The notes below the pieces were generated by a model. It did not search any database, was not told the DNA's origin, and saw nothing but the letters and a program-made list of their open reading frames with translations. The translations under genes were made by a program, and so were the position numbers. This document shows positions 1,145-20,893 of a DNA stretch of 20,893 bases, piece by piece. Each line of letters begins with the position of its first letter. Positions within the stretch are counted from its first letter, which is position 1. The DNA comes from Breznakia blatticola (lineage in GTDB: Bacteria > Bacillota_I > Bacilli_A > Erysipelotrichales > Erysipelotrichaceae). The stretch is from the NCBI RefSeq assembly GCF_004365815.1, contig NZ_SODD01000043.1, positions 1 through 20,893 on the forward strand. Reading direction: 5' to 3'.

Positions 1145-2212
1145 ATGCAATGGGTACTTTACTTAGTTGTACCTTTATTACTGTCGACAGTGATTACTCC
1201 CATCGTAAATCGTATCGGGATTAAATTAGATATTTATGCACATACAAATGAGCGAACCGTTCACCATGGAAAAATTGCCAGAGTGGGTGGTATTGCCATC
1301 TATGTTGCATTTATCTTATCCATGACCTTCTTTATGGATGGAATAGATGATGCTTTTCGTGGTTTATTAATTGGATCAACGGTTATGTTTATCGGTGGTC
1401 TAATTGATGATATGTTGGATTTGAAACCCATACTAAAAATTGCCTTTCAAGTATTAGCAGCATATATTCTAATCAAAGTAGGTGGAGTCGAGTTAGGTGT
1501 GATTCACTTACCATTTGGTATTGTTATCAATATGGGTGTAGTTTCATTCCTAGTTACTTTTGTATGGATTATAGGGATTAGTAATGCCATCAATCTTGTA
1601 GATGGATTGGATGGACTTGCTGGTGGAATTACAACGATTGTCTTCTTGACGATTGCTGCGATTTCCGTGGCAGATGATCGACCAGATATCGCAATGATTT
1701 CATTGATTATTGCTGGATCGACATTAGGATTTTTATTCTTTAACTTTCATCCTGCGAAAATATTCATGGGTGATTGTGGGGCATTGTTCCTTGGATTTGT
1801 GGTTGCCGCAATTTCCTTAATGGGATTTAAAGGTTCTACATTTATCACATTAGGTTTTCCGATGTTGTTATTAAGTGTACCAATTGTGGATACCTTAAGT
1901 GCAATTGTGAGAAGAACTTTTAGTGGAAAGAAATTCACAGATGCAGATAAAGGACATTTCCATCACGTACTCATGCGACGTTTTGGACATCGTAATACCG
2001 TACTTATTATTTATGCGATAACCATGTCATTTGGTATTGTTGCATATGTATACATTCTAAATCAAAAAATTGGACTGTTATGTGTGGCGTTATTATTTAT
2101 TGGTCTTGAGATTTTCTTAGAGACTTCACAAATGATTTCACCAAAATACCATCCATTGATATCGATTTATCGAATTCTATTTAGAAAAAATGAAAAAGAC
2201 GACAAAGAGTAA
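1145..2212 (+). CDS. tagO: Polyprenyl-phosphate N-acetylhexosamine-1-phosphate transferase (MraY/WecA/TagO family)
   Basis: 355-aa polytopic membrane protein. Family motifs NAINLVDGLDGLAGG and FMGDCGALFLGF. SD AGGGGG at 1131-1136. Confidence 0.85.
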   Translation: MQWVLYLVVPLLLSTVITPIVNRIGIKLDIYAHTNERTVHHGKIARVGGIAIYVAFILSMTFFMDGIDDAFRGLLIGSTVMFIGGLIDDMLDLKPILKIAFQVLAAYILIKVGGVELGVIHLPFGIVINMGVVSFLVTFVWIIGISNAINLVDGLDGLAGGITTIVFLTIAAISVADDRPDIAMISLIIAGSTLGFLFFNFHPAKIFMGDCGALFLGFVVAAISLMGFKGSTFITLGFPMLLLSVPIVDTLSAIVRRTFSGKKFTDADKGHFHHVLMRRFGHRNTVLIIYAITMSFGIVAYVYILNQKIGLLCVALLFIGLEIFLETSQMISPKYHPLISIYRILFRKNEKDDKE

Positions 2213-2228
2213 ATCTTCGTCGTCTTTT
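2194..2228. terminator. Bidirectional intrinsic terminator between convergent tagO and the kinase gene
   Basis: AAAAGACGACAAAGA / TCTTCGTCGTCTTTT inverted repeat with one mismatch and loop GTAAA. A-run on the left and T-run on the right. Overlaps the tagO stop codon. Confidence 0.6.
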
Positions 2229-2234
2229 TGTGTA

Positions 2235-3194
2235 TTATGCTGTTTTTAGTTTGTTTATCAGTTTGTCAGTTATCTCTACATTTCCATATTTCATTGCAAG
2301 TAAGACAGAACCTTTATCTGGTGGTAAAACCGGTTCGACTAAGTCGATGTTAATATCTTCAAGATGTTTTCTTAATGGTTCTAAGATATAGGAACCACTT
2401 GAAAATACACCTCCACTATATGAAACTTTTGCGTATTCCATGTGTAGCGTATGATAAATTGCTTTTATGATGTCCGAAAGTTCTTTTGCTGCTTGATCGT
2501 ATACTGATAAAATAGCTGGATCATTTTTTTGAGCTAGAATGTATGCGTGTTTAGCAAGTGCAGCGATTTGTGTGCGATCATAATTCATAGTAACAACGCA
2601 ATCACGAAGCATATCAGAATCATTTGTCCAATTCATGACCTCGTTCAAATAGGAATAAAGCATTGTTTTTTTATCTCGATGATCACTTTGACGCGTATAT
2701 AATCGTAACATATTGCTAGCAATCCAATATGCACTCCCCTCATCACCGAGAAATGCGTGATGCCATCCACCTGAACGATAACTTTCATTATGTTCGTTAA
2801 TTCCCATCCCGATACTTCCGGTTCCTGCGATAATGTTAATACCTGGTTTTCCGCCAAGCGAACCCGCTAATGCATTTTCATTATCATTACCAATAGTAAA
2901 AGGAATTGACTGTAACGCGTTTTTTGCACTTTGTTCAATCTTAGGATCATCATCGATAATATCACCATATCCAGCACATGCTGCAAAACAATAACTAATT
3001 TGATTTCGGCTAAGATTTGCTTGACTAAGGCAATCATCAATTCCATCATTGAGGACTTTTGTTACACCATCAAATCCAGCTTGTAGATAATGTGAGGTTG
3101 GTTGAATGGATTCCGAGATAATAATTCCACGATCATCTGTTAGTAGAAACTTTGTTTTCGTTCCTCCTCCATCAATACCTAAAAAATATTTCAT
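2235..3194 (-). CDS. BadF/BadG/BcrA/BcrD-type ATPase, N-acetylglucosamine-kinase-like sugar kinase
   Basis: 319 aa. N-terminal LGIDGGGTKTKF and central IIAGTGSIGMG ATPase motifs typical of the family. Its ATG overlaps the regulator stop (ATGA at 3191-3194), and its GGAGG SD lies inside the regulator 3' end. Confidence 0.8.
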   Translation of the reverse strand: MKYFLGIDGGGTKTKFLLTDDRGIIISESIQPTSHYLQAGFDGVTKVLNDGIDDCLSQANLSRNQISYCFAACAGYGDIIDDDPKIEQSAKNALQSIPFTIGNDNENALAGSLGGKPGINIIAGTGSIGMGINEHNESYRSGGWHHAFLGDEGSAYWIASNMLRLYTRQSDHRDKKTMLYSYLNEVMNWTNDSDMLRDCVVTMNYDRTQIAALAKHAYILAQKNDPAILSVYDQAAKELSDIIKAIYHTLHMEYAKVSYSGGVFSSGSYILEPLRKHLEDINIDLVEPVLPPDKGSVLLAMKYGNVEITDKLINKLKTA

Positions 3195-4198
3195 TTCGAT
3201 TTTCCTCCTGTAGATTCACGTTCGATTAGTGTGACAGGTAATGAAATTGTATAAATTTCTGTATCTGTATTTGTAAGCAATTCGTGAAGTCGTTTGATTG
3301 CAAGTTTTCCAATTGTTTTTGTAGGTACTTCAATCGTACTAAGTGGTGGGGTGGTATGTTCTGATGTAGGGATGTTGTTAAAGCCAATAACAGAAATATC
3401 ATCAGGACATCGTAACCCAGATGCAAAAATGCGTCCAAGTATTACAGAACCAAGGGTATCACTACCTGCAAAGATAGCATCAGGTCGATTTTCAAGTGCA
3501 AGTATTTCATCGGTTTGCTTTCCACATGTGTTAAGATCCCAATCACAATTTCTCACGATGGCTTCATCAAAAGTTAAGTCATTTCTTCGTAAAGTTTCTC
3601 TATATGCTGCCATACGCAATGTATCGTCAAATACTTCATTAATCCCTGCACCACCAATATAAGCAATTCGTCTGTTTCCTTTTTGGATTAGATGTTCTAA
3701 GGCGATTGTAGTTGCACGATAGGCATCAAATGTAATGATATTAAGATTACTTTGGATTGGGTCGATACCGATAATGTGTGGAATTTTGCTTTGTAGTTGT
3801 TGCATCATGTCGGCTGGTAGACGCTCCATGATGATTACACCATCTAATTCAAAATCTAAAAACTCTTTTAGTATTTCAGGTTTTAAAAGTTCATTATAGT
3901 TTCTAGCAATAATTGGTTGAATGTCTAATTTCTCTGCCTCTGCTTCGGCCGCTGATAAAATAGATGTGAAATACGGGTCGGAATATTTTTCTGCAGTCAG
4001 TGCTAAGATGAAACCAACACGCCATGGTTTCTTTTTTGTTTTTTTAGATTTGTATATATAGTTTAGGTCTTTAGCTGCGCTGAAGATCTTTTCTTTTGTT
4101 TCAGGTGTTACTTTAAAACTCTCGTCATTAGATAATACACGAGCAACAGTAGCTAAAGAAACATCTGCTTTTTTTGCTACATCTCTCAAATTTGACAT
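3191..4198 (-). CDS. LacI/GalR-family transcriptional regulator
   Basis: 335 aa. N-terminal HTH MSNLRDVAKKADVSLATVARVLSN followed by a periplasmic-binding-protein-like sugar-binding core. SD CCTCCT (reverse complement AGGAGG) at 4205-4210. Confidence 0.9.
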   Translation of the reverse strand: MSNLRDVAKKADVSLATVARVLSNDESFKVTPETKEKIFSAAKDLNYIYKSKKTKKKPWRVGFILALTAEKYSDPYFTSILSAAEAEAEKLDIQPIIARNYNELLKPEILKEFLDFELDGVIIMERLPADMMQQLQSKIPHIIGIDPIQSNLNIITFDAYRATTIALEHLIQKGNRRIAYIGGAGINEVFDDTLRMAAYRETLRRNDLTFDEAIVRNCDWDLNTCGKQTDEILALENRPDAIFAGSDTLGSVILGRIFASGLRCPDDISVIGFNNIPTSEHTTPPLSTIEVPTKTIGKLAIKRLHELLTNTDTEIYTISLPVTLIERESTGGKSK

Positions 4199-7906: not shown

Positions 7907-8740
7907 ATGAAATTAAAAATAAAAAGAGAACAGGTTGTTCGTTTTAGTATATTTTTGCTTCTTGCATTAATTGCTGTATTCTTCATACTTCCATACATTT
8001 GGATGATTTTGAATTCTTTTAAATCAACGAAAGAGATTTTAATGTCACCAAAGAATATTTTCCCAGAACACTTTACACTTGATGCATACATAAAAGTATT
8101 AACAAATTCACCATTCTTTACGTGGTTTAAAAACAGTGCATTTATTACCATCACAAATACACTAGTCATTTTGTTTGTGAGTGCAATTGTTGGGTATGTG
8201 TTTTCGAAATATGAATTTCGTTTCAAGAAAACGTTATTTATGATTGTACTGGCTACAATGATGGTTCCAGCACAAACAACAATGATTCCATCATTCTTAT
8301 TAATCGATAAGCTTGGCTTGTACAATACAGCAGGTGCATTAATTTTTCCTACATTTGTTAATGCATTTGGAATTTACCTATGTAAACAATTCTGTGATGA
8401 GATTCCTGCTGAAATTATAGAAAGTGCAAAACTTGATGGTGCAGGCGATATTACAATATTCTTTAGAATCGTATTGCCAATGATCAAGCCAGCAATTGGA
8501 GCGCTTGCAATATTCACATTCTTAACATACTGGAATGATTATTTAAATCCATTAATTATGTTGAGCGAAGTGAAAAATATGACATTACCTTTAGCGTTAT
8601 CATTCTTTGCACAACAACATACAGCAGATTTAGCAGCACAAATGGCAGCGTCAGCATTAATTATGATACCAGTAACCATCGTATTTATGACATTCCAAAA
8701 ATACTTTATCAAAGGTATCGCAATGACAGGTATGAAATAG
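7907..8740 (+). CDS. ABC sugar transporter permease (MalG/UgpE-like)
   Basis: 277 aa. EAA loop [24 protein letters not shown]. Starts 1 nt after the preceding stop. Confidence 0.9.
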
Positions 8741-8750
8741 AGGAGTCACC

Positions 8751-9854
8751 ATGGCAAATATAGAATTAAAAAATATAAATAAGTTTTACGATAAAAATGT
8801 ACATGCAGTAACTGACTTTAACCTTGAAATTCGAGATAAGGAATTTATTGTATTTGTTGGTCCAAGTGGATGTGGAAAAAGTACAACATTGCGTATGATT
8901 GCAGGATTGGAAGAGATCTCATCAGGTGAATTATATATTGATGGTGTATTAGAAAATGATCGTCCAAGTAAAGATAGAGATATTGCGATGGTATTTCAAT
9001 CATATGCTTTATATCCACATATGAGTGTATATGACAACATGGCCTTTGGTTTAAAATTAAAAAAGACACCAAAGGATGAAATTGATAGACGAATCAAAGA
9101 TGCTGCGCAAATCTTGGAAATAACGGATTACTTGAAACGAAAACCAAAACAATTATCAGGTGGTCAAAGACAACGTGTAGCTTTAGGTAGAGCGATTGTA
9201 AGAAATGCAAAAGTATTTTTAATGGATGAGCCATTAAGTAATTTAGATGCAAAATTAAGAGTGCAAATGCGCTCGGAGATTATTCAATTACATCAAAAAA
9301 TAAAAGCGACTACAATTTATGTAACGCATGATCAAACAGAAGCGATGACAATGGCAACACGACTTGTCATAATGAAAGATGGCTTTATTCAACAAATTGG
9401 AACACCAAAAGAAGTATATGATCATCCAAAAAATCAATTTGTTGCGGGATTCATTGGATCTCCTGCAATGAATTTCATTGAAGGTGTAATTGAGGATGGA
9501 TGTTTTAAGTTTAGCGATTGTAGTTTTAAATTACCAGAGATCACGCATAAACGACTGACTGACTACCATGGAAAGAAAGTAACTATGGGAATTCGTCCTG
9601 AAGATATCTATACTGAAAAAATTGTTGAGCAAACATATCCAGAAGTAAATTTTGACTTCAAAATTGAAGTAAGTGAATTACTTGGACATGAAACGATTAT
9701 TCATGGATGCATTGACTGTCATAAGTTGATTGCAAAAGTAAATGCAAGAAATAATGTAAAAGCAGGTGATGTAATTGAGGTTACTTTTGATGCAGATAAA
9801 CTACATTTCTTTGATCAAGAAACAGGACAAAGTGTTTTGCATGAAACAAAATAA
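8751..9854 (+). CDS. msmX: ABC sugar transporter ATP-binding protein (MsmX/MsmK/MalK/UgpC type)
   Basis: Walker [10 protein letters not shown], signature [14 protein letters not shown], Walker [14 protein letters not shown]-loop YVTHDQ. C-terminal regulatory (TOBE-like) extension. Confidence 0.92.
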
Positions 9855-10872
9855 AGTACCGAAACCTCAATGTATAGTAAAAAAGACAGAAGTTTTGTAT
9901 CCGAAATTTCCAGTAATTGATTTTCATACACATATGGGGAAGTTGGTTTTGGGTGATGGCTATGAACGTATGTATAATACAAAAGAACATGTCAAACGAC
10001 TTAAAGAGTTAGGGATAAAGCATATTGTAAATCTTGATGGAATCTGGGGAGATGAACTTGATAAGATGCTTGAAAAAGTTGGGGATGAAGCTTCATTTAT
10101 TACAACATTTTGTTGGATAGATGTAACAAAAATAGACGATGATGATTTTGATGCATGGGTGATCGATCATCTAGAAACTGCATATAAAAAAGGATGCAAA
10201 GGGATTAAAATGTGGAAAGTGATTTCACTAAATCAAAAAGATGCATCAGGAAACTATATTCGTACAGATGATCCAAGACTAGCGGTTGTCTATCATACGG
10301 CAGCACGACTTGGTATGGTGATTCTAATTCACATTGCAGATCCAACAGCATTTTTCGAGGAAATAAACGAAGAAAATGAACGATCAATTGAACTTACGAT
10401 GCATCCAGATTGGCAATTTGGAAAACCAGATCAATATTCATTTGATGAATTGATGCAAATGCAAGATCATATGATCGAATTATATCCGAACACGACGTTT
10501 GTTGTTGCACATTTTGGTTCCTATGCAGAGAATTTAACACATGTGGCAAAACGTTTGGATAGGTATCCAAACATGTATATAGATATAGCAGCAAGAGTAG
10601 CTGAACTAGGTAGAGTTCCATATTCGGCTCGAGAGTTTTTCATTACGTATCAAGATCGAATTGTGTTTGGAACAGATGAAACACCTTTAGATTATTTTCA
10701 ATATCCACTAAGTTTTCGCTTTCTAGAAACTAGTGACGAATATTTTCCATATTGGGAAGACGAGACAGGCCCTCAACAAGGAAATTGGTATATATATGGA
10801 TTGCATTTACCAGATGAAGTGCTAGAGAAAATATACTATCGGAATGCGTGTGCATTATTGGGTATTGAATGA
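9841..10872 (+). CDS. Amidohydrolase-superfamily metal-dependent hydrolase (TIM barrel), substrate unknown
   Basis: Ordered candidate metal ligands IDFHTH (HxH), IHIADP, VAHFGS and FGTDE, as in amidohydrolase-type barrels. Start set to ATG 9841 (MKQNKVPK...), which overlaps the ATPase 3' end by 14 nt. No clear SD, so the exact start is uncertain. Confidence 0.75.
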
Positions 10873-10907
10873 TAATACATGAACAAATATAGGGTTTGTT
10901 CGAAATT

Positions 10908-10940
10908 GACGATTGTTACACATAAACAGTCGTCTTTTTT
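10908..10940 (+). terminator. Intrinsic terminator ending the sugar operon
   Basis: GACGATTGT / ACAGTCGTC forms a 9-bp stem with one G-U pair and loop TACACATAA, followed by TTTTTT. Confidence 0.7.
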
Positions 10941-10994
10941 ACATATTCTCACTTGATATCTTCATCATTTTTTCACAAATTGTTTCCATGTGCG

Positions 10995-11003
10995 TGGTAT
11001 AAT
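10995..11003 (+). promoter_or_regulatory. Extended -10 element TGgTATAAT immediately upstream of the tilS ATG
   Basis: TG at 10995-10996 and TATAAT at 10998-11003. The tilS ATG begins at 11010, only 6 nt after the -10, and no SD lies between them. Confidence 0.35.
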
Positions 11004-11009
11004 TGCACC

Positions 11010-12215
11010 ATGAGTAATGAATGTGAAACTTGGGTTGTTGCTGTTTCTGGTGGAGCAGACTCAATGGCGCTGTTAGATATGTATCGCAACAAGAATTATC
11101 AACTGGTTGTCGCACATGTGAATTATCATAAACGCGATACCGCCAATCGAGATGAAAATGGAGTTTGTTTGTATTGTAAGCAATATGACATTCCTTTTTT
11201 TGCATATCACGTAAAAGAATATAACCCGGGAAATTTTCAAGCACAGGCACGAAATATTCGATATCAATTTTTCAAGGAAATCGTAAAGCAAACCAATGCG
11301 AAAGGTGTACTTGTTGCACATCATCAAGATGATGTACTGGAAACCTATCTCATGCAAAAACAAAGAAAATCGATTCCGCGTGTATTTGGAATGGATACAG
11401 ATAGTACGATTAAAGGCGTACATGTACTTCGACCATTACTCAACTATAGTAAGCAAGATTTATATGAATACTGCAAAATGCACAACGTTGTATATTATGA
11501 GGATGAAAGTAATGCATCAAATGCATATACAAGAAATCGCATTCGTCATGAACAGGTGATGAAACTTGATCCTATGCAACGTAAGACATTGCTTGAAGAA
11601 ATGAAGCATGCAAATCATGGATTGCAAAAAATGCGACAGAAATTAGAATCGCATGTACAAAAGGAATTGGATATGCAAGTATTTGCTACATTGAATCAAG
11701 AAGAACAGCACCAACTGTTATACATGTGGCTAACAACATTTAGTGCATATCATCAAATCTCAAAACGCTATATTGACCAACTACTTTCTTTACACAAGAA
11801 ACAAAGTAATTGGCGTCATGATTATAAGCGAAATTATGAAATTGTATGTGAATATGGAGTACTTAAACTTCAAAAGAAAGCATCCGATACTTATGCATAC
11901 ACATACCATGAAGTACAAGAAGATATGACACCGTATTATCAATTATGTACACAAGGAAAAACCATTGAGGGATTTTATGTTGATAAACAAGATTTTCCAA
12001 TTGTGATTCGTTCACCTAAACCAGGTGATTCTATTCAATTACGTTACGGAAAAAAGAAAGTCTCAAGGTTTTTCATAGATCGCAAAATACCCAAAAAAGA
12101 ACGTGAAATTTGCCCAGTTGTTGAAAATGCGAATGGGGATGTCATATTTGTTAGTGGAATTGGCTGTGATGTGTTTCATTATAGTAACAATTTGAATATG
12201 TTTGTGATAAAATAA
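11010..12215 (+). CDS. tilS: tRNA(Ile)-lysidine synthase
   Basis: PP-loop motif VAVSGGADSMALL. C-terminal TilS-type domain (KKVSRFFIDRKIPKKERE). Conserved tilS-hpt-ftsH order. Start set to ATG 11010 rather than the SD-less TTG at 10953. Confidence 0.88.
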   Translation: MSNECETWVVAVSGGADSMALLDMYRNKNYQLVVAHVNYHKRDTANRDENGVCLYCKQYDIPFFAYHVKEYNPGNFQAQARNIRYQFFKEIVKQTNAKGVLVAHHQDDVLETYLMQKQRKSIPRVFGMDTDSTIKGVHVLRPLLNYSKQDLYEYCKMHNVVYYEDESNASNAYTRNRIRHEQVMKLDPMQRKTLLEEMKHANHGLQKMRQKLESHVQKELDMQVFATLNQEEQHQLLYMWLTTFSAYHQISKRYIDQLLSLHKKQSNWRHDYKRNYEIVCEYGVLKLQKKASDTYAYTYHEVQEDMTPYYQLCTQGKTIEGFYVDKQDFPIVIRSPKPGDSIQLRYGKKKVSRFFIDRKIPKKEREICPVVENANGDVIFVSGIGCDVFHYSNNLNMFVIK

Positions 12216-12248
12216 TGTGTATTGATAGTCAAGGAGTATATTAAAATT

Positions 12249-12794
12249 ATGCATAAGGATGTAGATAGAGTTTTAGTCTCAAGAGAAGAGATACACGCAA
12301 AGTGTATTGAATTAGGAAAACAAATTACGAAGGATTACACAGATAGAGGTGAACTACCAATTTTGGTTGGATTACTTAATGGTTCTGTTCCATTCATGAG
12401 TGAATTAATGAAGAACATCGAAATGGATGTTGAAATTGATTTTATGGATGTTTCAAGTTATGAAGGAACACAATCTGTGGGATCAATTCGAATCAATAAA
12501 GATATGGGTACCAGTGCAGCTGGAAAATCCATTTTATTAGTAGAAGATATCGTGGATACTGGAAAGACATTAACGGAAGTAAAACGTATGTTAGCAAACA
12601 AAGGTGCTAAAGATGTACGTGTTGTTTCTTTATTAGATAAACCAGATCGACGTACTGAAGATATAGAAGCAGATTACGTTGGGTTTACCATTCCAAATGA
12701 ATTTGTGATCGGATATGGATTGGATTACAATCAAAAATACCGTAACTTACCATATGTTGGGATTCTAAAACCTGAAGTTTATGAAGAGTCATAG
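12249..12794 (+). CDS. hpt: Hypoxanthine-guanine phosphoribosyltransferase
   Basis: PRPP-binding motif ILLVEDIVDTGKT. Collinear with B. subtilis HprT from MHKDVDRVLVS onward, ending in YRNLPYVGILKPEVYE. AAGGAG at 12231-12236. Confidence 0.92.
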   Translation: MHKDVDRVLVSREEIHAKCIELGKQITKDYTDRGELPILVGLLNGSVPFMSELMKNIEMDVEIDFMDVSSYEGTQSVGSIRINKDMGTSAAGKSILLVEDIVDTGKTLTEVKRMLANKGAKDVRVVSLLDKPDRRTEDIEADYVGFTIPNEFVIGYGLDYNQKYRNLPYVGILKPEVYEES

Positions 12795-12803
12795 GAGGGC
12801 TAG

Positions 12804-14774
12804 ATGAAAAACAATAAGCGCAATCCGTTGTTGCTTTTACCGTATTTATTATTAGCATTAATGTTAATCTTCCTATTACCATTTAACAATCTGAATGAAA
12901 CCAAAGAGTTTACTTACAATGAATTTGCTAAGAAAGCTGAAAAGATGGATTTCCAAGATGTTAGTATGGGAATTGGAACCGTAACAATTGAAGTTGAAGG
13001 TAAATATAAAAACAACAAAGATGAAGATGTTGCATTTAGTGCAACATTACCAAAAACTGATGAAAATATTGAGTGGTTACAAAAAACACTTGATTCAGGA
13101 AAAAACAAAGTTAAAGTGTATGAACCAGATGATGAAAACATCTTACTTACACTATTTATTAACTTCTTCCCAATCTTGTTGTTAGGAGGGTTTGTGTTCG
13201 TAATGTTCTCACGCATGGGTGGTGGACAACAAAACAAAGCCTTCGAATTCTCAAAATCAAGAGCGAAAGTACAGGGAAACATCAAAACACGTTTCAAAGA
13301 TGTAGCTGGAGCTGATGAGGAAAAAGAAGAAGTTAAAGAAATTATTGATTACCTTAAAAATCCAAAACGTTTCTCTGATATGGGAGCTCGTATTCCAAAA
13401 GGAATGTTAATGGTAGGTCCTCCAGGTACAGGGAAAACCTTACTCGCAAAAGCGGTAGCAGGAGAAGCGGATGTACCATTCTTCTCGATTTCTGGTTCAG
13501 ATTTCGTAGAAATGTTTGTTGGTACTGGGGCAAGTCGTGTCCGTGATATGTTTAAGAAAGCAAAACAAGCAGCACCATGTATTGTCTTCATTGATGAAAT
13601 CGATGCAGTTGGACGTCAACGTGGAGCTGGTATGGGTGGAGGAAACGATGAACGTGAACAAACCCTAAACCAATTGCTTGTAGAAATGGATGGAATGGAA
13701 GAAAACATTGGTATCGTAATTATTGCGGCTACCAACCGACCAGATGTTCTTGACCCTGCCTTATTACGTAGTGGACGTTTCGACCGTCAAATTACCGTAA
13801 GTTTACCAGATAAAAAAGGACGTACGGAAATTCTTGAAGTACATGCCAGAAATAAAAAGTTAGCACCAGATGTTACACTTGAAAACCTTGCTAAACGTAC
13901 ACCAGGATTCTCAGGAGCAGACTTAGAAAACGTATTAAACGAAGGTGCAATTCTTGCCGTTCGCGGAAACCGTAAATTAATCACTATGGATGACTTAGAT
14001 GAAGCAGTAGACCGTGTTATGATGGGACCTGCTAAGAAAAGTAAGAAATATAGTGATACGGATAAAAAACTCGTGGCGTACCATGAAGCAGGACATGCGG
14101 TTATTGGTATTAAATTAGAAGATGCTGACATGGTTCAAAAAGTAACGATCATTCCTCGTGGGGATGCTGGTGGTTACAACTTGATGACACCAAGAGAAGA
14201 AAAATACTTCCACCGCAAAAAAGAATACATGGCACAAATCACTGGATTACTTGGTGGTCGTGTATCAGAAGAGTTAGTATTTGGTGAAATCAGTGCCGGT
14301 GCAGTAAATGACATCGAAAAAATCACAAAAATCGCCAAAGCAATGGTTCGTGTATTCGGTATGTCAACATTAGGTCCTATTCAATATGCAGATCCTCAAG
14401 GAAATGTCTTTTTAGGAAGAGATTACAACCAAGGAGCAGCATACTCTGGAGAAGTTGCATTCGAAATTGACCAAGAAGTTCGTAAGATTATTAATGAATG
14501 TTACGATGAATGTAAACGCATCTTAATTGAAAACCGTGACTTACTTGATTTAATTGCAAATTCTTTAATTGAAGAAGAAACATTAACAAGTGAACAAATC
14601 AATAACTTAGTAGAATATGGTACATTAGATGCACCAAAACAAGATGTTGAAGCACACGAAGAAACAATCAAAGAACAAGATGAAAAAATGAAAGAACCAG
14701 AAGTTATCGAACAACCTGTAGAAGCACAAGAAAGTATTCCTACAGCTGATGACTTACCAGATTCTGAAGAATAA
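12804..14774 (+). CDS. ftsH: ATP-dependent zinc metalloprotease FtsH
   Basis: Two N-terminal TM segments. AAA+ Walker A GPPGTGKT and Walker B IVFIDEID. Zinc motif HEAGHA. Acidic C-terminal tail. SD AGGAGG at 12794-12799. Confidence 0.97.
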
Positions 14775-14835: not shown

Positions 14836-14863
14836 TTGACATTGTTATAAAGTATGATAAAAT
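14836..14863 (+). promoter_or_regulatory. Candidate sigma-A promoter (TTGACA-N16-TGaTAAAAT) upstream of hslO
   Basis: Consensus -35 TTGACA at 14836-14841, TG at 14855-14856, -10 TAAAAT at 14858-14863. Confidence 0.5.
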
Positions 14864-14928
14864 GCATTCAACACAAAGCACTGCCATTGGTAGGTGCTTT
14901 TTGTGTTATAATACGAAAGGTGATAAAA

Positions 14929-15831
14929 ATGAAAGATCAATTAATAAAAGCCTTAGCCTGTGAAGGTCGTGTACGTATATATGTCGTAAATACCACAGGA
15001 CTTGTGAACTATGCACAAAAACAACAAGACTTGTGGCCAACTGCTAGTGCAGCACTTGGACGCACATTAAGTGTTGCATCCATGATGGGAGCAAACTTAA
15101 AAAGTGATCAAGAAAAGATTACTATTACAATCAATGGTGGTGGACCAATTGGAACCGTGATGGCAGATGCCTATTATGGAGGAAATGTCCGTGGTTTTGT
15201 CGGTGATCCACATATCATGTTGCAATATAACGAAGACCATCCATTAGCAAATAAACTTGCAGTTGGTATCGCAGTTGGTAAAGAAGGATATCTAGAAGTG
15301 AAAAAAGATATCGGTATGGGAAAAGAAGATTTCAGTGGACGTGTTGCATTACAATCCGGAGAAATTGGTGAAGATTTCGCATACTATTTTGCTTTGAGTG
15401 AACAAACACCATCTGCTGTATCAGTAGGAGTACTTGTTGATACCGACAATACAATTATTGCAAGTGGTGGACTGTTACTACAAATGATGCCAGATGCTAC
15501 CGAAGATGATATTCGCAAAAGTGAAGAAGCATTACGTAAATTAGATAATATGTCAAATTTAATACGTGACAATGTAGCACTTGAAGATATTCTTCATAGT
15601 ATGTTTGATGATATAAAAATACTAGAAACAACAGATGTTGCTTTTGTATGTAACTGTAGTAAAGAAAAAATCATCAATGCGATTTCTCTAATGGATGCTA
15701 GTGAAATTCAAAACATGATTGATGAAGATCATGGAGCACAAGCAACTTGTCAATACTGCAAAAAAGAATACCAAATCAGTGAAGCAGAACTTCAAGATAT
15801 ATTGAAAGATAAGGCGCATGTGGTACATTAG
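14929..15831 (+). CDS. hslO: Redox-regulated chaperone Hsp33
   Basis: C-terminal zinc-centre cysteines CxC...CxxC (FVCNCSKEK and ATCQYCKKEY). Start set to ATG 14929 (MKDQLIKAL) with GAAAGGTGA upstream; the track extension from 14854 runs through promoter and hairpin sequence. Confidence 0.9.
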   Translation: MKDQLIKALACEGRVRIYVVNTTGLVNYAQKQQDLWPTASAALGRTLSVASMMGANLKSDQEKITITINGGGPIGTVMADAYYGGNVRGFVGDPHIMLQYNEDHPLANKLAVGIAVGKEGYLEVKKDIGMGKEDFSGRVALQSGEIGEDFAYYFALSEQTPSAVSVGVLVDTDNTIIASGGLLLQMMPDATEDDIRKSEEALRKLDNMSNLIRDNVALEDILHSMFDDIKILETTDVAFVCNCSKEKIINAISLMDASEIQNMIDEDHGAQATCQYCKKEYQISEAELQDILKDKAHVVH

Positions 15832-16813
15832 AGATTTACCAATTGAAAATGAAATTGTCATTGCCCCAATGGCAGGTATTAGTAATGCTGCGTTCCGTTC
15901 ACTTTATAAAGAATTTGGAGCTGGTTTTATTGTGTCTGAGCTAATCAGTGATAAAGCTATTTTCTATAAAAATGAGAAGACGATGGGAATGTTAGATGTC
16001 CATGAAAATGAACATCCGATGGCATTGCAATTGTTTGGTCATGATATTGACACAATGGTTCACGCAGCTAAAGTGATGGATCAAGATACAGCTTGTGATG
16101 TAATTGATATCAATATGGGATGCCCAGTAAATAAGGTAGTAAAATCATTTGCTGGTAGTGCCTTGATGAAAGATCCTGAACATGCATACAAACTTGTTAA
16201 AGCAATTGTTGCTGCAGTGAAAAAACCAGTTACGGTTAAATTTCGAGCAGGTTGGGATGCACATAGTATCAATGCGGTCGAATTCGCAAAACTTATGGAA
16301 AAAGCGGGAGCCAGTGCAATTTGTATTCATGGTCGTACCCGTGCACAAATGTATGAAGGAAAAGCCGACTGGTCCATTATTAAACAAGTCAAAGATGCAG
16401 TCTCTATTCCAGTAATGGGAAATGGTGATGTAAAAAGCGTTGCTGACTTTAAAGCGATGATGGAAGAAACCGGTTGTGATGCAGTTGCGATTGGTCGAGG
16501 GGTTCTTGGAAATCCTTGGTTGATTCGTCAGTGCAATCACTATTTGAAAACGGGTGAAATTTTAGAAGATGTTTCGTATCAAGAGAAATTTGCTTTAGCA
16601 TTTCAACATGCAAGAAACCTTTGCGAATTAAAAGGAGAACGTGTTGGGATGAAAGAAATGCGTGGACATGCAACTTGGTATATCAAAGGATTGCCAAAAT
16701 CACATGTCACAAAAGATCGATTATCAAAAGTTGAAACCTTTGCAGAATTTGAAGATATTCTTCATGAGTATGAAATCATCTTACAAGAATACGAAGATAC
16801 AAAGCCCAGATAA
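15818..16813 (+). CDS. dusB: tRNA-dihydrouridine synthase B
   Basis: Motifs APMAGISNAAFR, DINMGCP and IHGRTR. Collinear with B. subtilis DusB as I recall it. Overlaps the hslO 3' end by 14 nt. Confidence 0.92.
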   Translation: MWYIRDLPIENEIVIAPMAGISNAAFRSLYKEFGAGFIVSELISDKAIFYKNEKTMGMLDVHENEHPMALQLFGHDIDTMVHAAKVMDQDTACDVIDINMGCPVNKVVKSFAGSALMKDPEHAYKLVKAIVAAVKKPVTVKFRAGWDAHSINAVEFAKLMEKAGASAICIHGRTRAQMYEGKADWSIIKQVKDAVSIPVMGNGDVKSVADFKAMMEETGCDAVAIGRGVLGNPWLIRQCNHYLKTGEILEDVSYQEKFALAFQHARNLCELKGERVGMKEMRGHATWYIKGLPKSHVTKDRLSKVETFAEFEDILHEYEIILQEYEDTKPR

Positions 16814-16934: not shown

Positions 16935-18684
<1,750 letters not shown>

Positions 18685-18745: not shown

Positions 18746-18789
18746 ATTTACGCCTGATTTACGCCTGATTTACGCCCAATTTACGCCCA
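18746..18789. repeat. 4 x 11-bp perfect-phase tandem repeat (ATTTACGCCTG x2, ATTTACGCCCA x2)
   Basis: Read directly: units start at 18746, 18757, 18768 and 18779. A GC-rich ACGCC core sits in an AT-rich context, 62 nt after the lysS stop. Confidence 0.95.
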
Positions 18790-18858: not shown

Positions 18859-18922
18859 AATTTGATAGTAAGAAAAGTATTTTATGTATACTTGTATTAT
18901 TTAGTATAATTTTTTAAGATGT

Positions 18923-18950
18923 TTGCAAGGAAACTTTGTGATGATATAAT
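18923..18950 (+). promoter_or_regulatory. Candidate sigma-A promoter for the MBL/TM operon (TTGCAA-N16-TGaTATAAT)
   Basis: -35 TTGCAA at 18923-18928, TG at 18942-18943, consensus -10 TATAAT at 18945-18950. SD TAGGAGGG at 18964-18971 and ATG at 18979. Confidence 0.55.
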
Positions 18951-18978
18951 TAGAAATAAAGATTAGGAGGGATAACAT

Positions 18979-20307
18979 ATGAGAGAACCATTAAAGTTTA
19001 TAACAGATGAAAAGTCATTAAAATTTTATTTGATAGATTGTGGTTCAGGGTTAATGCATTTAATAGTATTTCCAAATGATAAGGTAATGCTATTTGACTG
19101 TAATGTTACAAGTGATAATGAGGACAGAATAATAAAATTTTTAGAGAAACATATACCTTCTAAATGGGATAATGAAACTGGAGAATTCAAAAAAGAAATA
19201 GATATATTTGTAAATTCCCATAGAGATATTGACCATCTTCGTGGTTTGAAAAAGGTTAATAGTAATTTTAAAGTAAAGTCAATTTGGGATTCAGGACAAA
19301 CTGGAGCTAGTACAGATAATAGCGAATACAACTACTATATGTATTTAAGAAGAGAACTAAAAAAAGCTAATGAAAATAATTTGTTTGTACCTGTTCCATC
19401 AAATGAAGCGATTAGACACGACATTGATGATATAGATATTTATTGTCTTTCTGCAGAGGCAGACTTTCAAGAAGATTATGTTAATGAAGTAAAGATGGCT
19501 GTAAAAAAACAACATACAAATTCGATGGTTTTGCTTATAAAGTATGGGGAAAGAAAAATGCTTTTAACTGGTGATTCAGATTGGAAAAGTTGGAAGGAGC
19601 AAATTGTACCAAACTTCAAGTGGAATTCTGTCAATTATGAAAATACAGATATATTGGTAGCAAGTCACCATGGGTCAAGAAGTTTTTTTACTGATGAATT
19701 AAATGAAACAATTGATGTGGAGAAAAATCCTGATACAACATATTTAGAGTCAATTGGTTTAATAAAACCTGTTGTTACAATTATTTCCTGTGGAGATTAT
19801 GAAGAATATCATCATCCAAATAAAGAAGCTTTGGCTTTGTATAAAACACATACAAGCAATGAACAGGTATATACTACAAATGAGCTAGGAACAATTTGTG
19901 GTTTTATATCTGCTACGGGTGATTTTTCTATAATACCAGATAGATTTAAAAATAATGAGAATCAAGAAAACTATAATTTTAAACTTTCATGTAATGTCAA
20001 TGGAGTATCTATAAATAATGGAGATTCTTTAGCAACAGGATGTAATTTGAAATTTTCAGCATTGGTTACGCAAGGGCTAAGAACACCAGATGATAAACTT
20101 AAAATATTTTGGGAGGTTTCTAATATGGGTATAGATGATGATTATGAACATCAAGAGATATACTATAAAGGGAAAAAAGAAGAAAGTGGAAAATATGTAT
20201 TTGAACGTGAGTTGTCTTTTGTTGGAATACATACATTAAGATGTAGAATTAAAAATACTTCTAAAGGAATTGATGAAACTAAAATTTTTATAGTAAGGGG
20301 AATATAA
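18979..20307 (+). CDS. Stand-alone ComEC/Rec2-type metallo-beta-lactamase-fold hydrolase with an extra C-terminal beta-rich domain
   Basis: 442 aa with no TM segments. Ordered MBL motifs of the COG2333/ComEC type: YLIDCGSGLMHLIVFPNDKVMLFDCN, FVNSHRDIDHLRGL (an H-x-D-x-D-H variant, nt 19219-19236), NSMVLLIKYGERKMLLTGDSD, ILVASHHGSRS and IISCGDYEEYHHPNKEAL..VYTTNELGTI. Residues ~333-442 form an additional domain of alternating-polarity strands. Confidence 0.8.
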   Translation: MREPLKFITDEKSLKFYLIDCGSGLMHLIVFPNDKVMLFDCNVTSDNEDRIIKFLEKHIPSKWDNETGEFKKEIDIFVNSHRDIDHLRGLKKVNSNFKVKSIWDSGQTGASTDNSEYNYYMYLRRELKKANENNLFVPVPSNEAIRHDIDDIDIYCLSAEADFQEDYVNEVKMAVKKQHTNSMVLLIKYGERKMLLTGDSDWKSWKEQIVPNFKWNSVNYENTDILVASHHGSRSFFTDELNETIDVEKNPDTTYLESIGLIKPVVTIISCGDYEEYHHPNKEALALYKTHTSNEQVYTTNELGTICGFISATGDFSIIPDRFKNNENQENYNFKLSCNVNGVSINNGDSLATGCNLKFSALVTQGLRTPDDKLKIFWEVSNMGIDDDYEHQEIYYKGKKEESGKYVFERELSFVGIHTLRCRIKNTSKGIDETKIFIVRGI

Positions 20308-20308
20308 A

Positions 20309-20845
20309 ATGAATATAAAGGACTATCGCGAGAAAGAGCTTAAAATGTTTGTATTGGCGTGTATTCTTTTATTTGTTAGCTTAACTCAAAGTTTTTTGCT
20401 TAATGATGTTGTAGTATTGGAAGTATTTATCAAAATTCTCAATACCTCTATAATATCGAGTTCAATTTATTTAATGTCGTTTGTTGCGGATTCGTTACTC
20501 ACTAGTCAATTTAAGGAAAACTTAATCTACATTTTTGGATTATACACAAAACCAGGAAGTGAAATATTTACAAAGATTGAAGAGAATAATAATGATAATC
20601 GTATTAGTACAAAAAAAGCATTAAAATATTATAAAAAAATATACGAAGATATGCCAAATGCTGATAAAAATAAAAAGGATTATCAAAATAGTTGTTGGTA
20701 TTCTATTTACTCAAATTATAGAAATGTTAAAATGATTGAAATATCACATCGTGACTTTCTTTTATGTAGAGATATCTTTTGCATGACCTTTATACTAATT
20801 GTAAATGTCAATTATAAATTAACGAAAATTCGGAATCAGAGTTGA
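20309..20845 (+). CDS. Small multi-pass membrane protein of unknown function, co-operonic with the MBL hydrolase
   Basis: 178 aa. The ATG lies 1 nt after the MBL stop, and the SD AAGGGG sits inside the MBL 3' end. Hydrophobic segments at about aa 13-31, 44-60 and 150-167, separated by a ~90-aa Lys/Asn/Tyr-rich loop. I recognise no family motif. The stop codon falls inside the first 23-bp repeat, so a truncated or altered 3' end is possible. Confidence 0.6.
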   Translation: MNIKDYREKELKMFVLACILLFVSLTQSFLLNDVVVLEVFIKILNTSIISSSIYLMSFVADSLLTSQFKENLIYIFGLYTKPGSEIFTKIEENNNDNRISTKKALKYYKKIYEDMPNADKNKKDYQNSCWYSIYSNYRNVKMIEISHRDFLLCRDIFCMTFILIVNVNYKLTKIRNQS

Positions 20846-20893
20846 TGAATTTTCGGAATATGAGTTGAAGAAAAATCGGAATTATAAATTGAT
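20824..20893. repeat. 23-bp tandem repeat, at least 3 copies, running off the window edge
   Basis: Units GAAAATTCGGAATCAGAGTTGAT, GAATTTTCGGAATATGAGTTGAA and GAAAAATCGGAATTATAAATTGAT. The invariant TCGGAAT core occurs at 20830, 20853 and 20876, an exact 23-bp period. AATTATAAATT also recurs at 20810 and 20880. Confidence 0.8.

Follow-up and report, generated by a model that had tools for sequence, protein, structure and literature searches.

A ComEC-like metallo-beta-lactamase fused to an AGS-C domain and linked to a small membrane protein: a candidate two-gene conflict module beside lysS in Breznakia blatticola

What is the role of two AT-rich genes that follow lysS at the end of a contig of Breznakia blatticola (Erysipelotrichaceae)? 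The window, that is, the whole stretch of DNA analysed here, is the entire 20893-bp contig NZ_SODD01000043.1, so nothing can be read past its right edge. An earlier note, based on the sequence alone, had described the two genes (here gene A and gene B) as a stand-alone ComEC-type metallo-beta-lactamase (MBL) hydrolase and a small membrane protein, and had proposed that they form a conflict or defence module. By combining profile searches, structure models and the neighbourhoods of related genes, we lean, by a rather narrow measure of confidence, towards an uncharacterised, horizontally mobile two-gene conflict module, most likely directed against phages and possibly against incoming DNA generally. 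The most informative feature, which the note had missed, is a C-terminal AGS-C domain in gene A. The cassette and its right flank comprise the following features.

18922-18950, plus strand: putative cassette promoter, TTTGCA, 17-nt spacer, TG-extended TATAAT
18965-18970, plus strand: Shine-Dalgarno sequence AGGAGG, 8 nt before the gene A ATG, read from the sequence
18979-20307, plus strand: gene A, 442 aa, full length and apparently intact
18979-19953, plus strand: ComEC-like MBL nuclease-type domain of gene A, aa 1-325
19966-20304, plus strand: AGS-C immunoglobulin-like beta-sandwich domain of gene A, aa ~330-442
20296-20300, plus strand: Shine-Dalgarno sequence AGGGG of gene B, within the gene A 3' end, read from the sequence
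20309-20845, plus strand: gene B open reading frame (ORF), 178 aa
20309-20803, plus strand: homologous part of gene B, aa 1-~165
20804-20893, plus strand: foreign DNA replacing the gene B 3' end, from alignments with relatives and with the closest one (L001)
20824-20882: 23-bp x 2.6 iteron array, core TCGGAAT

The architecture reported in the note was recovered in full, with both ORFs present, the gene B ATG placed 1 nt past the TAA stop of gene A and its Shine-Dalgarno sequence inside gene A; the two genes are translationally coupled. The near-consensus promoter (TTTGCA-17-(TG)TATAAT) was also found as described, with 10 of 12 consensus matches and a TG before the -10 element, and the extended -10 (TGATGrTATAAT) is kept upstream of the gene A homologues in two relatives (L001 and L068). 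The drop in composition holds when computed: the GC content is 29.0% in gene A and 25.9% in gene B, compared with a mean of 35.0% (standard deviation 1.8) for the other 16 genes of the window, which places the cassette 3-5 standard deviations under the host genes. Both ORFs are real genes, supported by 274 homologues of gene A in a large protein database and by 1196 representative matches to the gene B profile.

Gene A is a ComEC-type MBL-fold hydrolase. Its N-terminal part belongs to Pfam Lactamase_B (aa 21-199, 27.1 bits against a cut-off of 22.7), and its homologues are mostly ~445 aa long. In the AlphaFold2 model, built on 64 homologues (pLDDT 90.1, pTM 0.91), the alpha-beta/beta-alpha core of the MBL fold leads into a second domain that is all beta. 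In a Foldseek search of the N-terminal part against the PDB, the best match was the beta-lactamase-like domain of ComEC (9ic4, E 8.9e-15, TMt 0.75) and the runner-up was the phosphorylcholine esterase Pce. Sequence matches in the PDB were to ComEC only, with the H-x-D-x-D-H motif in common (H81-R-D83-I-D85-H86 in gene A). Eight putative metal ligands (H81, D83, D85, H86, H179, D199, H230 and H231), matched to MBL motifs by hand and not by a tool, are invariant in the 64 homologues, which are 49-76% identical to the query, implying an enzyme under selection to stay active. A low-confidence loop of the model (residues 159-183) directly precedes H179.

No hydrophobic segment was detected in gene A (the top 19-aa Kyte-Doolittle mean is 1.27), and thus its product should be cytoplasmic; a signal peptide or transmembrane (TM) segment was likewise not found. 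The Competence domain is absent from both A and B in Pfam searches, and the ComEC/Rec2 model TIGR00361 gave 44.5 bits against a cut-off of 190, with only model positions 436-655, its MBL end, aligned to gene A. Together with the 9ic4 fold match and the ComEC-only PDB matches, this agrees with the description in the note of a ComEC-type MBL protein without the membrane channel. ComEC-like MBL nucleases in Hachiman, AVAST, Lamassu and DRT systems are latent DNases, unmasked by linked trypsin-like protease fusions, and defence MBL nucleases cleave DNA and not RNA (PMC12799240; 10.1101/2025.09.03.673762). Judged by its homology with ComEC and these defence nucleases, gene A most likely encodes a metal-dependent DNase. 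Profile searches, a check that the note had proposed, revealed no housekeeping family in Pfam or NCBIfam that claims either gene.

The all-beta domain of gene A was identified as AGS-C by Pfam AGS_C (PF18134; aa 330-428, 32.6 bits against a cut-off of 26.7, E 9e-8). With Foldseek, the C-terminal part matched 9ard_A, described as 'Pycsar EcPycC cyclase immunoglobulin-like AGS-C domain' (prob 1.00, TMt 0.59, 20% identity); a comparison with PDB chains by sequence gave no match for this part, so that the relationship is visible at the fold level only. Of the type I CBASS CD-NTases, ~40% carry AGS-C, an immunoglobulin-like domain also seen on PycC. It alters the range of phages that are restricted, operons containing it act against different phage families, and a sensing or regulatory role has been proposed (10.1101/2023.05.21.541620). 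No literature was found that joins AGS-C with a metallo-beta-lactamase. Within family A, the mean pairwise identity is 44% for AGS-C versus 59% for the MBL domain, and the higher variability of AGS-C fits what its sequence would look like as a specificity domain. Four polar residues of AGS-C (N382, K397, R410 and H418) are invariant in the 64 homologues.

Gene B represents a large family of small membrane proteins. Its homologues are 216-240 aa long (~220 aa typical), and an exhaustive profile search of 50%-identity representatives yielded 1196 matches at E <= 1e-3, 651 of them at E <= 1e-10. Full-length members contain two N-terminal and two C-terminal TM helices with a ~85-aa cytoplasmic helical domain between them, and both tails are conserved and charged (N-terminal MNIKDYREKELK, C-terminal KAKRFVxNVIAxD). 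The distribution of lysine and arginine fits an N-in/C-in topology. The AlphaFold2 model of a full-length homologue (P0123) is all helical (pLDDT 88.5), and the cytoplasmic domain has six invariant residues (D96, R98, Y108, W130, R154 and D155). A Foldseek search of the B model against the PDB and BFVD returned nothing at E <= 0.001, and neither truncated nor full-length B had a match in Pfam, NCBIfam, PHROGs or PADLOC, in Pfam not even at E <= 1.

The copy of gene B in the window is not a complete member of this family. The 178-aa protein reported in the note is indeed encoded, but it is C-terminally truncated: it aligns with full-length relatives over the first ~165 residues only, and in a DNA alignment with L001 the homology is lost after ~20802. 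It retains the cytoplasmic N-terminus, TM1, TM2, the ~85-aa helical domain in the cytoplasm and the first part of TM3. Its last ~50 codons, for the remainder of TM3, the whole of TM4 and the conserved KAKRFVxNVIAxD tail, have been lost. Foreign DNA adds 13 unrelated codons and a stop (20843-20845). A database search for the missing 3' end with the C-terminal 55 aa of a close homologue (P0122) gave no matches, P0122 itself included, and is therefore uninformative. Judged from these losses, the window allele of B is most likely non-functional and this copy of the module probably inactive. Degraded copies were also seen elsewhere. In Sarcina ventriculi (L036 9438-10093) B is split into two 102-aa ORFs, and in an Erysipelotrichaceae metagenome-assembled genome (L067 6587-7925) A is broken up into pieces of 341 and 101 aa, although A is intact in two Logan contigs of identical context (L068 and L069). 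Such copies reflect either frequent decay or assembly errors.

To place the pair in its genomic context, ORF calling, profile searches and neighbour clustering were applied to 33 distinct A loci with readable flanks. A small membrane-protein gene adjoins A on the same strand, with small gaps, in 31 of them, which bears out the co-occurrence that the note had asked about. Counted per locus, the partner is a B homologue in 17, a ~165-aa protein preceded by a ~285-aa MBL protein in 10, and a member of the families F11, F12 or F41 in 7. When B was compared with F2 (PDC-M48A-like), F11, F12 and F41 by hhalign, all probabilities were <= 8%; remote homology among the partners was accordingly rejected and the five families were treated as unrelated. 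Since unrelated partners are swapped while A is conserved, A was taken as the core and the membrane protein as an exchangeable module.

The 10 loci with the ~165-aa partner share a three-gene order, [PDC-M48B MBL ~285 aa][PDC-M48A TM ~165 aa][MBL-AGS-C ~445 aa], contain no B-type partner, and are located at:

L008, 8549-11332
L018, L019, L021, L024, L025, L027, L028, L040 and L080

In L008, the representative, the MBL protein gives 340 bits to PDC-M48B and the TM protein 56 bits to PDC-M48A, and the other nine loci cluster with it. That a PDC-M48 pair stands directly before an A homologue in these loci suggests that the three genes form one system, and that PDC-M48 often has an unrecognised third component. 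B homologues without A are still found beside a short MBL gene (L002-L006). Among these, L002-L005 share an order in which an MBL protein of 287 aa is followed by an unknown protein of 144 aa, B and a TM protein of 241 aa (L002 8665-11431). In L006 (9971-12604), B is followed by an MBL protein of 295 aa, a TM protein of 157 aa and a protein of 127 aa that, by eye, looks TIR-like at its N-terminus (KIFLSY...D). A third MBL paralogue of 369-396 aa, with a Cys-rich insert and weak matches to PDLC03854 and PDC-M48B, is linked in 6 loci, where up to three MBL-fold genes stand in a row:

L007, 12167-13273
L014, 2112-3233
L027, 5345-6535
L021, L024 and L040

Known defence genes are frequent around these modules. 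HsdR of type I restriction-modification (R-M) systems lies directly upstream of A in 5 loci. The dense defence island of L007 (1-21314), which is carried by a mobilisable element, begins with a relaxase; after it come type I R-M with DUF3800, the genes A and B, an MBL gene, DUF4268, SIR2_2, a Lamassu-type MBL that scores 331 bits against the PADLOC model named LmuA, its 940-aa neighbour and AIPR. An AAA ATPase with Ppl/AriA/GajA-type matches neighbours the pair in L067-L069, and HNH proteins, tyrosine integrases, relaxases and type IV secretion system (T4SS) genes occur near A/B modules in relatives. The neighbourhood analysis suggested in the note has thus placed type I R-M, SIR2, AIPR, a Lamassu-type MBL and integrative/conjugative elements beside the modules. 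This genomic context supports the conflict or defence role that the note had advanced, and it is from the context that we infer a defence phenotype.

The occurrence of A is sporadic. Full-length A was detected in ~34 species among 185,579 species representatives (one genome per species; ~0.02%), with identities of 42-64%. They include Clostridia/Lachnospiraceae (Bacillota), Muribaculaceae (Bacteroidota), Trichlorobacter and other delta-proteobacterial/Thermodesulfobacteriota lineages, Omnitrophota, Victivallales, Gastranaerophilales, Neomarinimicrobiota and Longilinea, which we take to belong to Chloroflexota. Such a patchy distribution across phyla indicates horizontal transfer. On the other hand, in the closest relative (L001) the pair is intact (8668-10651, compared with 1622-3605 for that of L068) and likewise follows lysS, with A 76%, LysS 79% and Dus 63% identical; the divergence of A is akin to that of LysS and Dus, and inheritance since the split from the L001 organism therefore looks vertical. 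The horizontally acquired look noted earlier is borne out by the patchy spread and low GC content, but seems not to extend to this recent history. In a third Erysipelotrichaceae relative the pair lies between a polysaccharide flippase gene and an AAA ATPase. Its different locus in so close a relative shows that the pair is not a core feature of the clade, and neither this nor its rarity among species fits a universal core pair, which the note had named as a finding that would speak against a conflict role.

Several known or candidate systems resemble the module in part. PDC-M48 is a PADLOC candidate, unpublished like the other PDC-x systems there, and no literature was found on it. It also consists of a ComEC-like MBL hydrolase (PDC-M48B, ~285 aa) tightly linked to a small multi-TM protein (PDC-M48A, ~165 aa) in defence islands. 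However, the PADLOC models cross-match the MBL domain of A only partially: PDC-M48B with E 4e-11 and 40.8 bits, PDLC03854 (an MBL model that PADLOC files under the name LmuA) with 8.7e-11, and RTasMBL with 6e-7. A true PDC-M48B member (L008 8549-9406) gives 340.5 bits over its full length. Moreover, A has the additional AGS-C domain, and B is ~220 aa long with an 85-aa cytoplasmic domain; no PADLOC match to PDC-M48A was obtained with the window B or five full-length homologues, and the hhalign probability of B against the PDC-M48A-like family is 0.9%. The pair is not itself a PDC-M48 system.

ComEC is the closest structure match and has the H-x-D-x-D-H and HHGS motifs in common with A, whereas A is soluble and cytoplasmic, is without an OB domain or Competence channel, and carries ~60 extra MBL residues, including loop 159-183, in addition to the AGS-C fusion. 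The C-terminal immunoglobulin-like AGS-C and a two-gene operon with an exchangeable small membrane protein recall CBASS and Pycsar. In those systems, however, the catalytic domain is a nucleotidyltransferase or cyclase, whereas that of A is an MBL hydrolase with no second messenger evident, and the membrane partners are unrelated to annotated Cap/PycTM families (no Pfam or PADLOC matches). A nucleotidyltransferase or cyclase was found neither in A nor in B, and the recurrent neighbour families are MBL, small TM and R-M proteins, singletons having been scanned in part. Trypsin-MBL (HamM-type) modules also contain a ComEC-like MBL, and A cross-matches the corresponding PADLOC MBL models, PDLC03854 and RTasMBL, but control here would come from AGS-C or the membrane partner and not from proteolysis: A is flanked by lysS and B only, and no protease family lies beside A in Pfam-annotated relatives.

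Rst_Hydrolase-3Tm (Rousset et al. 2022) pairs a HAD-like hydrolase with a TM protein and is supposed to act by abortive infection (PMC9122126). The note had named it as a possible relative; by the description in that paper, its hydrolase fold differs from the MBL fold of A, and the link is reduced to an analogy of two-gene hydrolase and transmembrane protein architecture. The Pseudomonas aeruginosa anti-phage system 6A-MBL has an MBL-fold protein together with ubiquitin-related components, while no ubiquitin-related genes are present here, only housekeeping genes lying upstream; its NCBIfam model (NF058524) gave a weak N-terminal match to A (49.8 bits, cut-off 220). Membership of 6A-MBL, Rst_Hydrolase-3Tm, ComEC, Lamassu and CBASS was therefore rejected, each failing in a defining feature.

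If the cassette is a conflict module, as we favour, A would be held at the membrane through B and kept latent. During infection, AGS-C would recognise a phage-derived cue, and this recognition would release the DNase, leading to the destruction of phage DNA and perhaps host DNA. B could be a tether or regulator, or else a membrane-damaging co-effector.

Some observations weigh against this reading. Given the closeness of the fold to Pce, the substrate need not be DNA. The invariant N382, K397, R410 and H418 could mark a conserved site for a small ligand or partner and not a variable antigen-binding surface, and AGS-C was initially proposed as a nucleotide sensor. B is without a recognisable fold or family. 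One locus (L037) has no membrane partner, and in another (L016) the partner is 1.9 kb away. The Breznakia lineage keeps the pair at lysS with a housekeeping-like divergence. The module copy in this genome, being probably dead, is uninformative on activity. In addition, a scan of IMG/VR viral contigs with the A profile found no relative, which is neutral for defence and provides no phage link.

These points leave room for other explanations, all of which appear less probable. It is rather unlikely that the module works through a messenger, with the MBL protein as a phosphodiesterase that makes or destroys a nucleotide signal, AGS-C as a nucleotide-binding domain and B as a ligand-gated membrane effector, which would make the pair an analogue of Pycsar or type I CBASS that lacks a cyclase, or that it is an anti-defence enzyme degrading immune cyclic nucleotides. 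AGS-C is otherwise found on nucleotide cyclases paired with TM effectors, the fold is near that of the phosphodiesterase Pce, the ~85-aa cytoplasmic domain of B with its invariant residues could be a ligand site, and the exchange of unrelated TM partners resembles effector swapping in CBASS/Pycsar. However, the nearest relatives of the MBL domain are the ComEC DNase domain and DNA-cleaving defence MBL nucleases, no signal synthase is present among the recurrent neighbours of A, and the three-gene loci, with two MBLs and one TM protein, fit a nuclease complex better. The module may instead serve the conflicts or maintenance of mobile elements, either as a membrane-tethered entry-exclusion nuclease against incoming conjugative or transforming DNA or as a toxin/partner addiction pair that stabilises an integrative and conjugative element or an island. 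Many copies in fact travel on integrative, conjugative or mobilisable elements, among whose genes are relaxases, T4SS components, integrases and a RelB/ParE pair; A and B are closely coupled; and the ComEC MBL domain, as Silale et al. in 2021 reportedly found, acts on DNA crossing the membrane. We consider this improbable nonetheless, as most of the genes right beside the module are classical anti-phage genes that share its orientation, AGS-C has so far been tied to phage specificity, and the pair of the Breznakia lineage is chromosomal, beside lysS, with no element genes visible.

An ordinary cellular function, such as that of a stand-alone nuclease for competence or DNA uptake or of a Pce-like cell-envelope phosphodiesterase acting with a membrane partner, is very improbable. 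The matches to ComEC and Pce folds, the position directly after a housekeeping operon and a LysS-like divergence between two Breznakia-lineage genomes would be in line with such a role. But A has no Competence channel or OB domain (TIGR00361 44.5 versus 190) and B no Pfam match, and A, having neither signal peptide nor TM segment, cannot reach teichoic acids. The presence in ~0.02% of species of scattered phyla and at a different locus in a close relative, the GC content 3-5 standard deviations below host genes, and the toleration of a truncated B here and of a split B in Sarcina ventriculi (L036) also argue against it.

The surroundings of the cassette help to define its borders. Upstream, the housekeeping synteny described in the note was confirmed by Pfam up to lysS:

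10953-12215, plus strand: tilS
12222-12794, plus strand: hpt
12804-14774, plus strand: ftsH
14854-15831, plus strand: hslO
15818-16813, plus strand: dus
16938-17148: T-box leader ahead of lysS
17128-18684, plus strand: lysS
18746-18787: 11-bp x 3.8 tandem array, 3' of lysS
between the 11-bp array and the cassette promoter: terminator-like hairpin of lysS

The T-box leader, which at 94.7 bits is marginally over its gathering score of 93, extends into the 5' end of the longest lysS ORF. LysS of L001 aligns with the product of this ORF from residue 24 onwards, and the true start of lysS therefore probably lies ~70 nt downstream of 17128. The 11-bp array consists of ATTTACGCCTG x2 followed by ATTTACGCCCA x2, between the lysS stop and its terminator-like hairpin. 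Two copies are kept at the same place in L001 (8491-8512), where lysS is 79% identical; in L068, which has the cassette at another site, no such array precedes it. As it is tied to lysS, precedes the lysS terminator and is missing where the cassette is found at another site, the array is not part of the cassette, and its role as a cassette boundary or operator was rejected; a protein might bind to it in the 3' region of lysS. Of the two flanking arrays that the note had reported, both exist, but neither belongs to the cassette, the right one being part of the foreign DNA.

The last 90 nt up to the contig end are unrelated to L001 and contain the 23-bp array. Its pattern, TTCGGAAT-N15-TTCGGAAT-N15-ATCGGAAT (24 fixed bases), was found in 7 unrelated metagenome contigs (L070-L076), each with a 23-bp-period array. 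In 5 of the 7 contigs a long ORF follows ~90-150 bp downstream of the array, and these ORFs have an istA-like N-terminus in common; in L073, the only one of the five scanned with Pfam, a Mu-transposase C-terminal domain and IstB_IS21 mark an istA/istB pair. The sequence CCAGCGTCRCT occurs ~30-45 bp inside the array in L073, L074 and L076. The metagenome arrays are probably IstA-binding terminal repeats. The DNA that interrupts B in the window is probably a mobile element, though an IS21-type insertion is a tentative assignment: the array core in the window does not point cleanly in the direction expected at the presumed terminus (the core TTCNGAA is palindromic), and 2 of the 7 similar arrays are not adjacent to IS21 genes. 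If real, such an insertion would explain both the truncation of B and the contig break. A blastn search of 20795-20893 against plasmids and phages gave chance-level matches only. The contig of L001 also ends soon after the cassette, inside a minus-strand ORF (10855-11061) whose product, by eye, resembles the C-terminal end of a transposase of the IS256 family. In this lineage, the DNA that follows lysS and the cassette seems to be prone to invasion by insertion sequences.

For this genome, the copy beside lysS is probably a disrupted remnant, and the wider meaning of the finding lies in the family. The module would combine MBL-nuclease defence with membrane partners and a sensor domain known from CBASS/Pycsar. 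The occurrence of AGS-C on a ComEC-like nuclease with swappable, almost always linked membrane partners in defence islands suggests that AGS-C is a self-contained sensor or regulator re-used by evolution. A bolder and rather doubtful proposal is that AGS-C is a portable phage-sensing module that gates the nuclease directly, making the system a messenger-free counterpart of type I CBASS/Pycsar and, together with PDC-M48, a large unrecognised superfamily of immune systems that pair a ComEC-like nuclease with exchangeable small membrane proteins and may act, at the membrane, on DNA as it enters. AGS-C is one of the few handles on the activation of type I CBASS/Pycsar cyclases, and if the proposal is true, DNA cleavage would provide a simple read-out for the cue that it recognises. 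The finding also ties the PDC-M48 candidate and an orphan membrane family of 1196 representatives to a testable model. If validated, the pair would represent an additional two-gene defence family, possibly built around a membrane-tethered anti-DNA nuclease.

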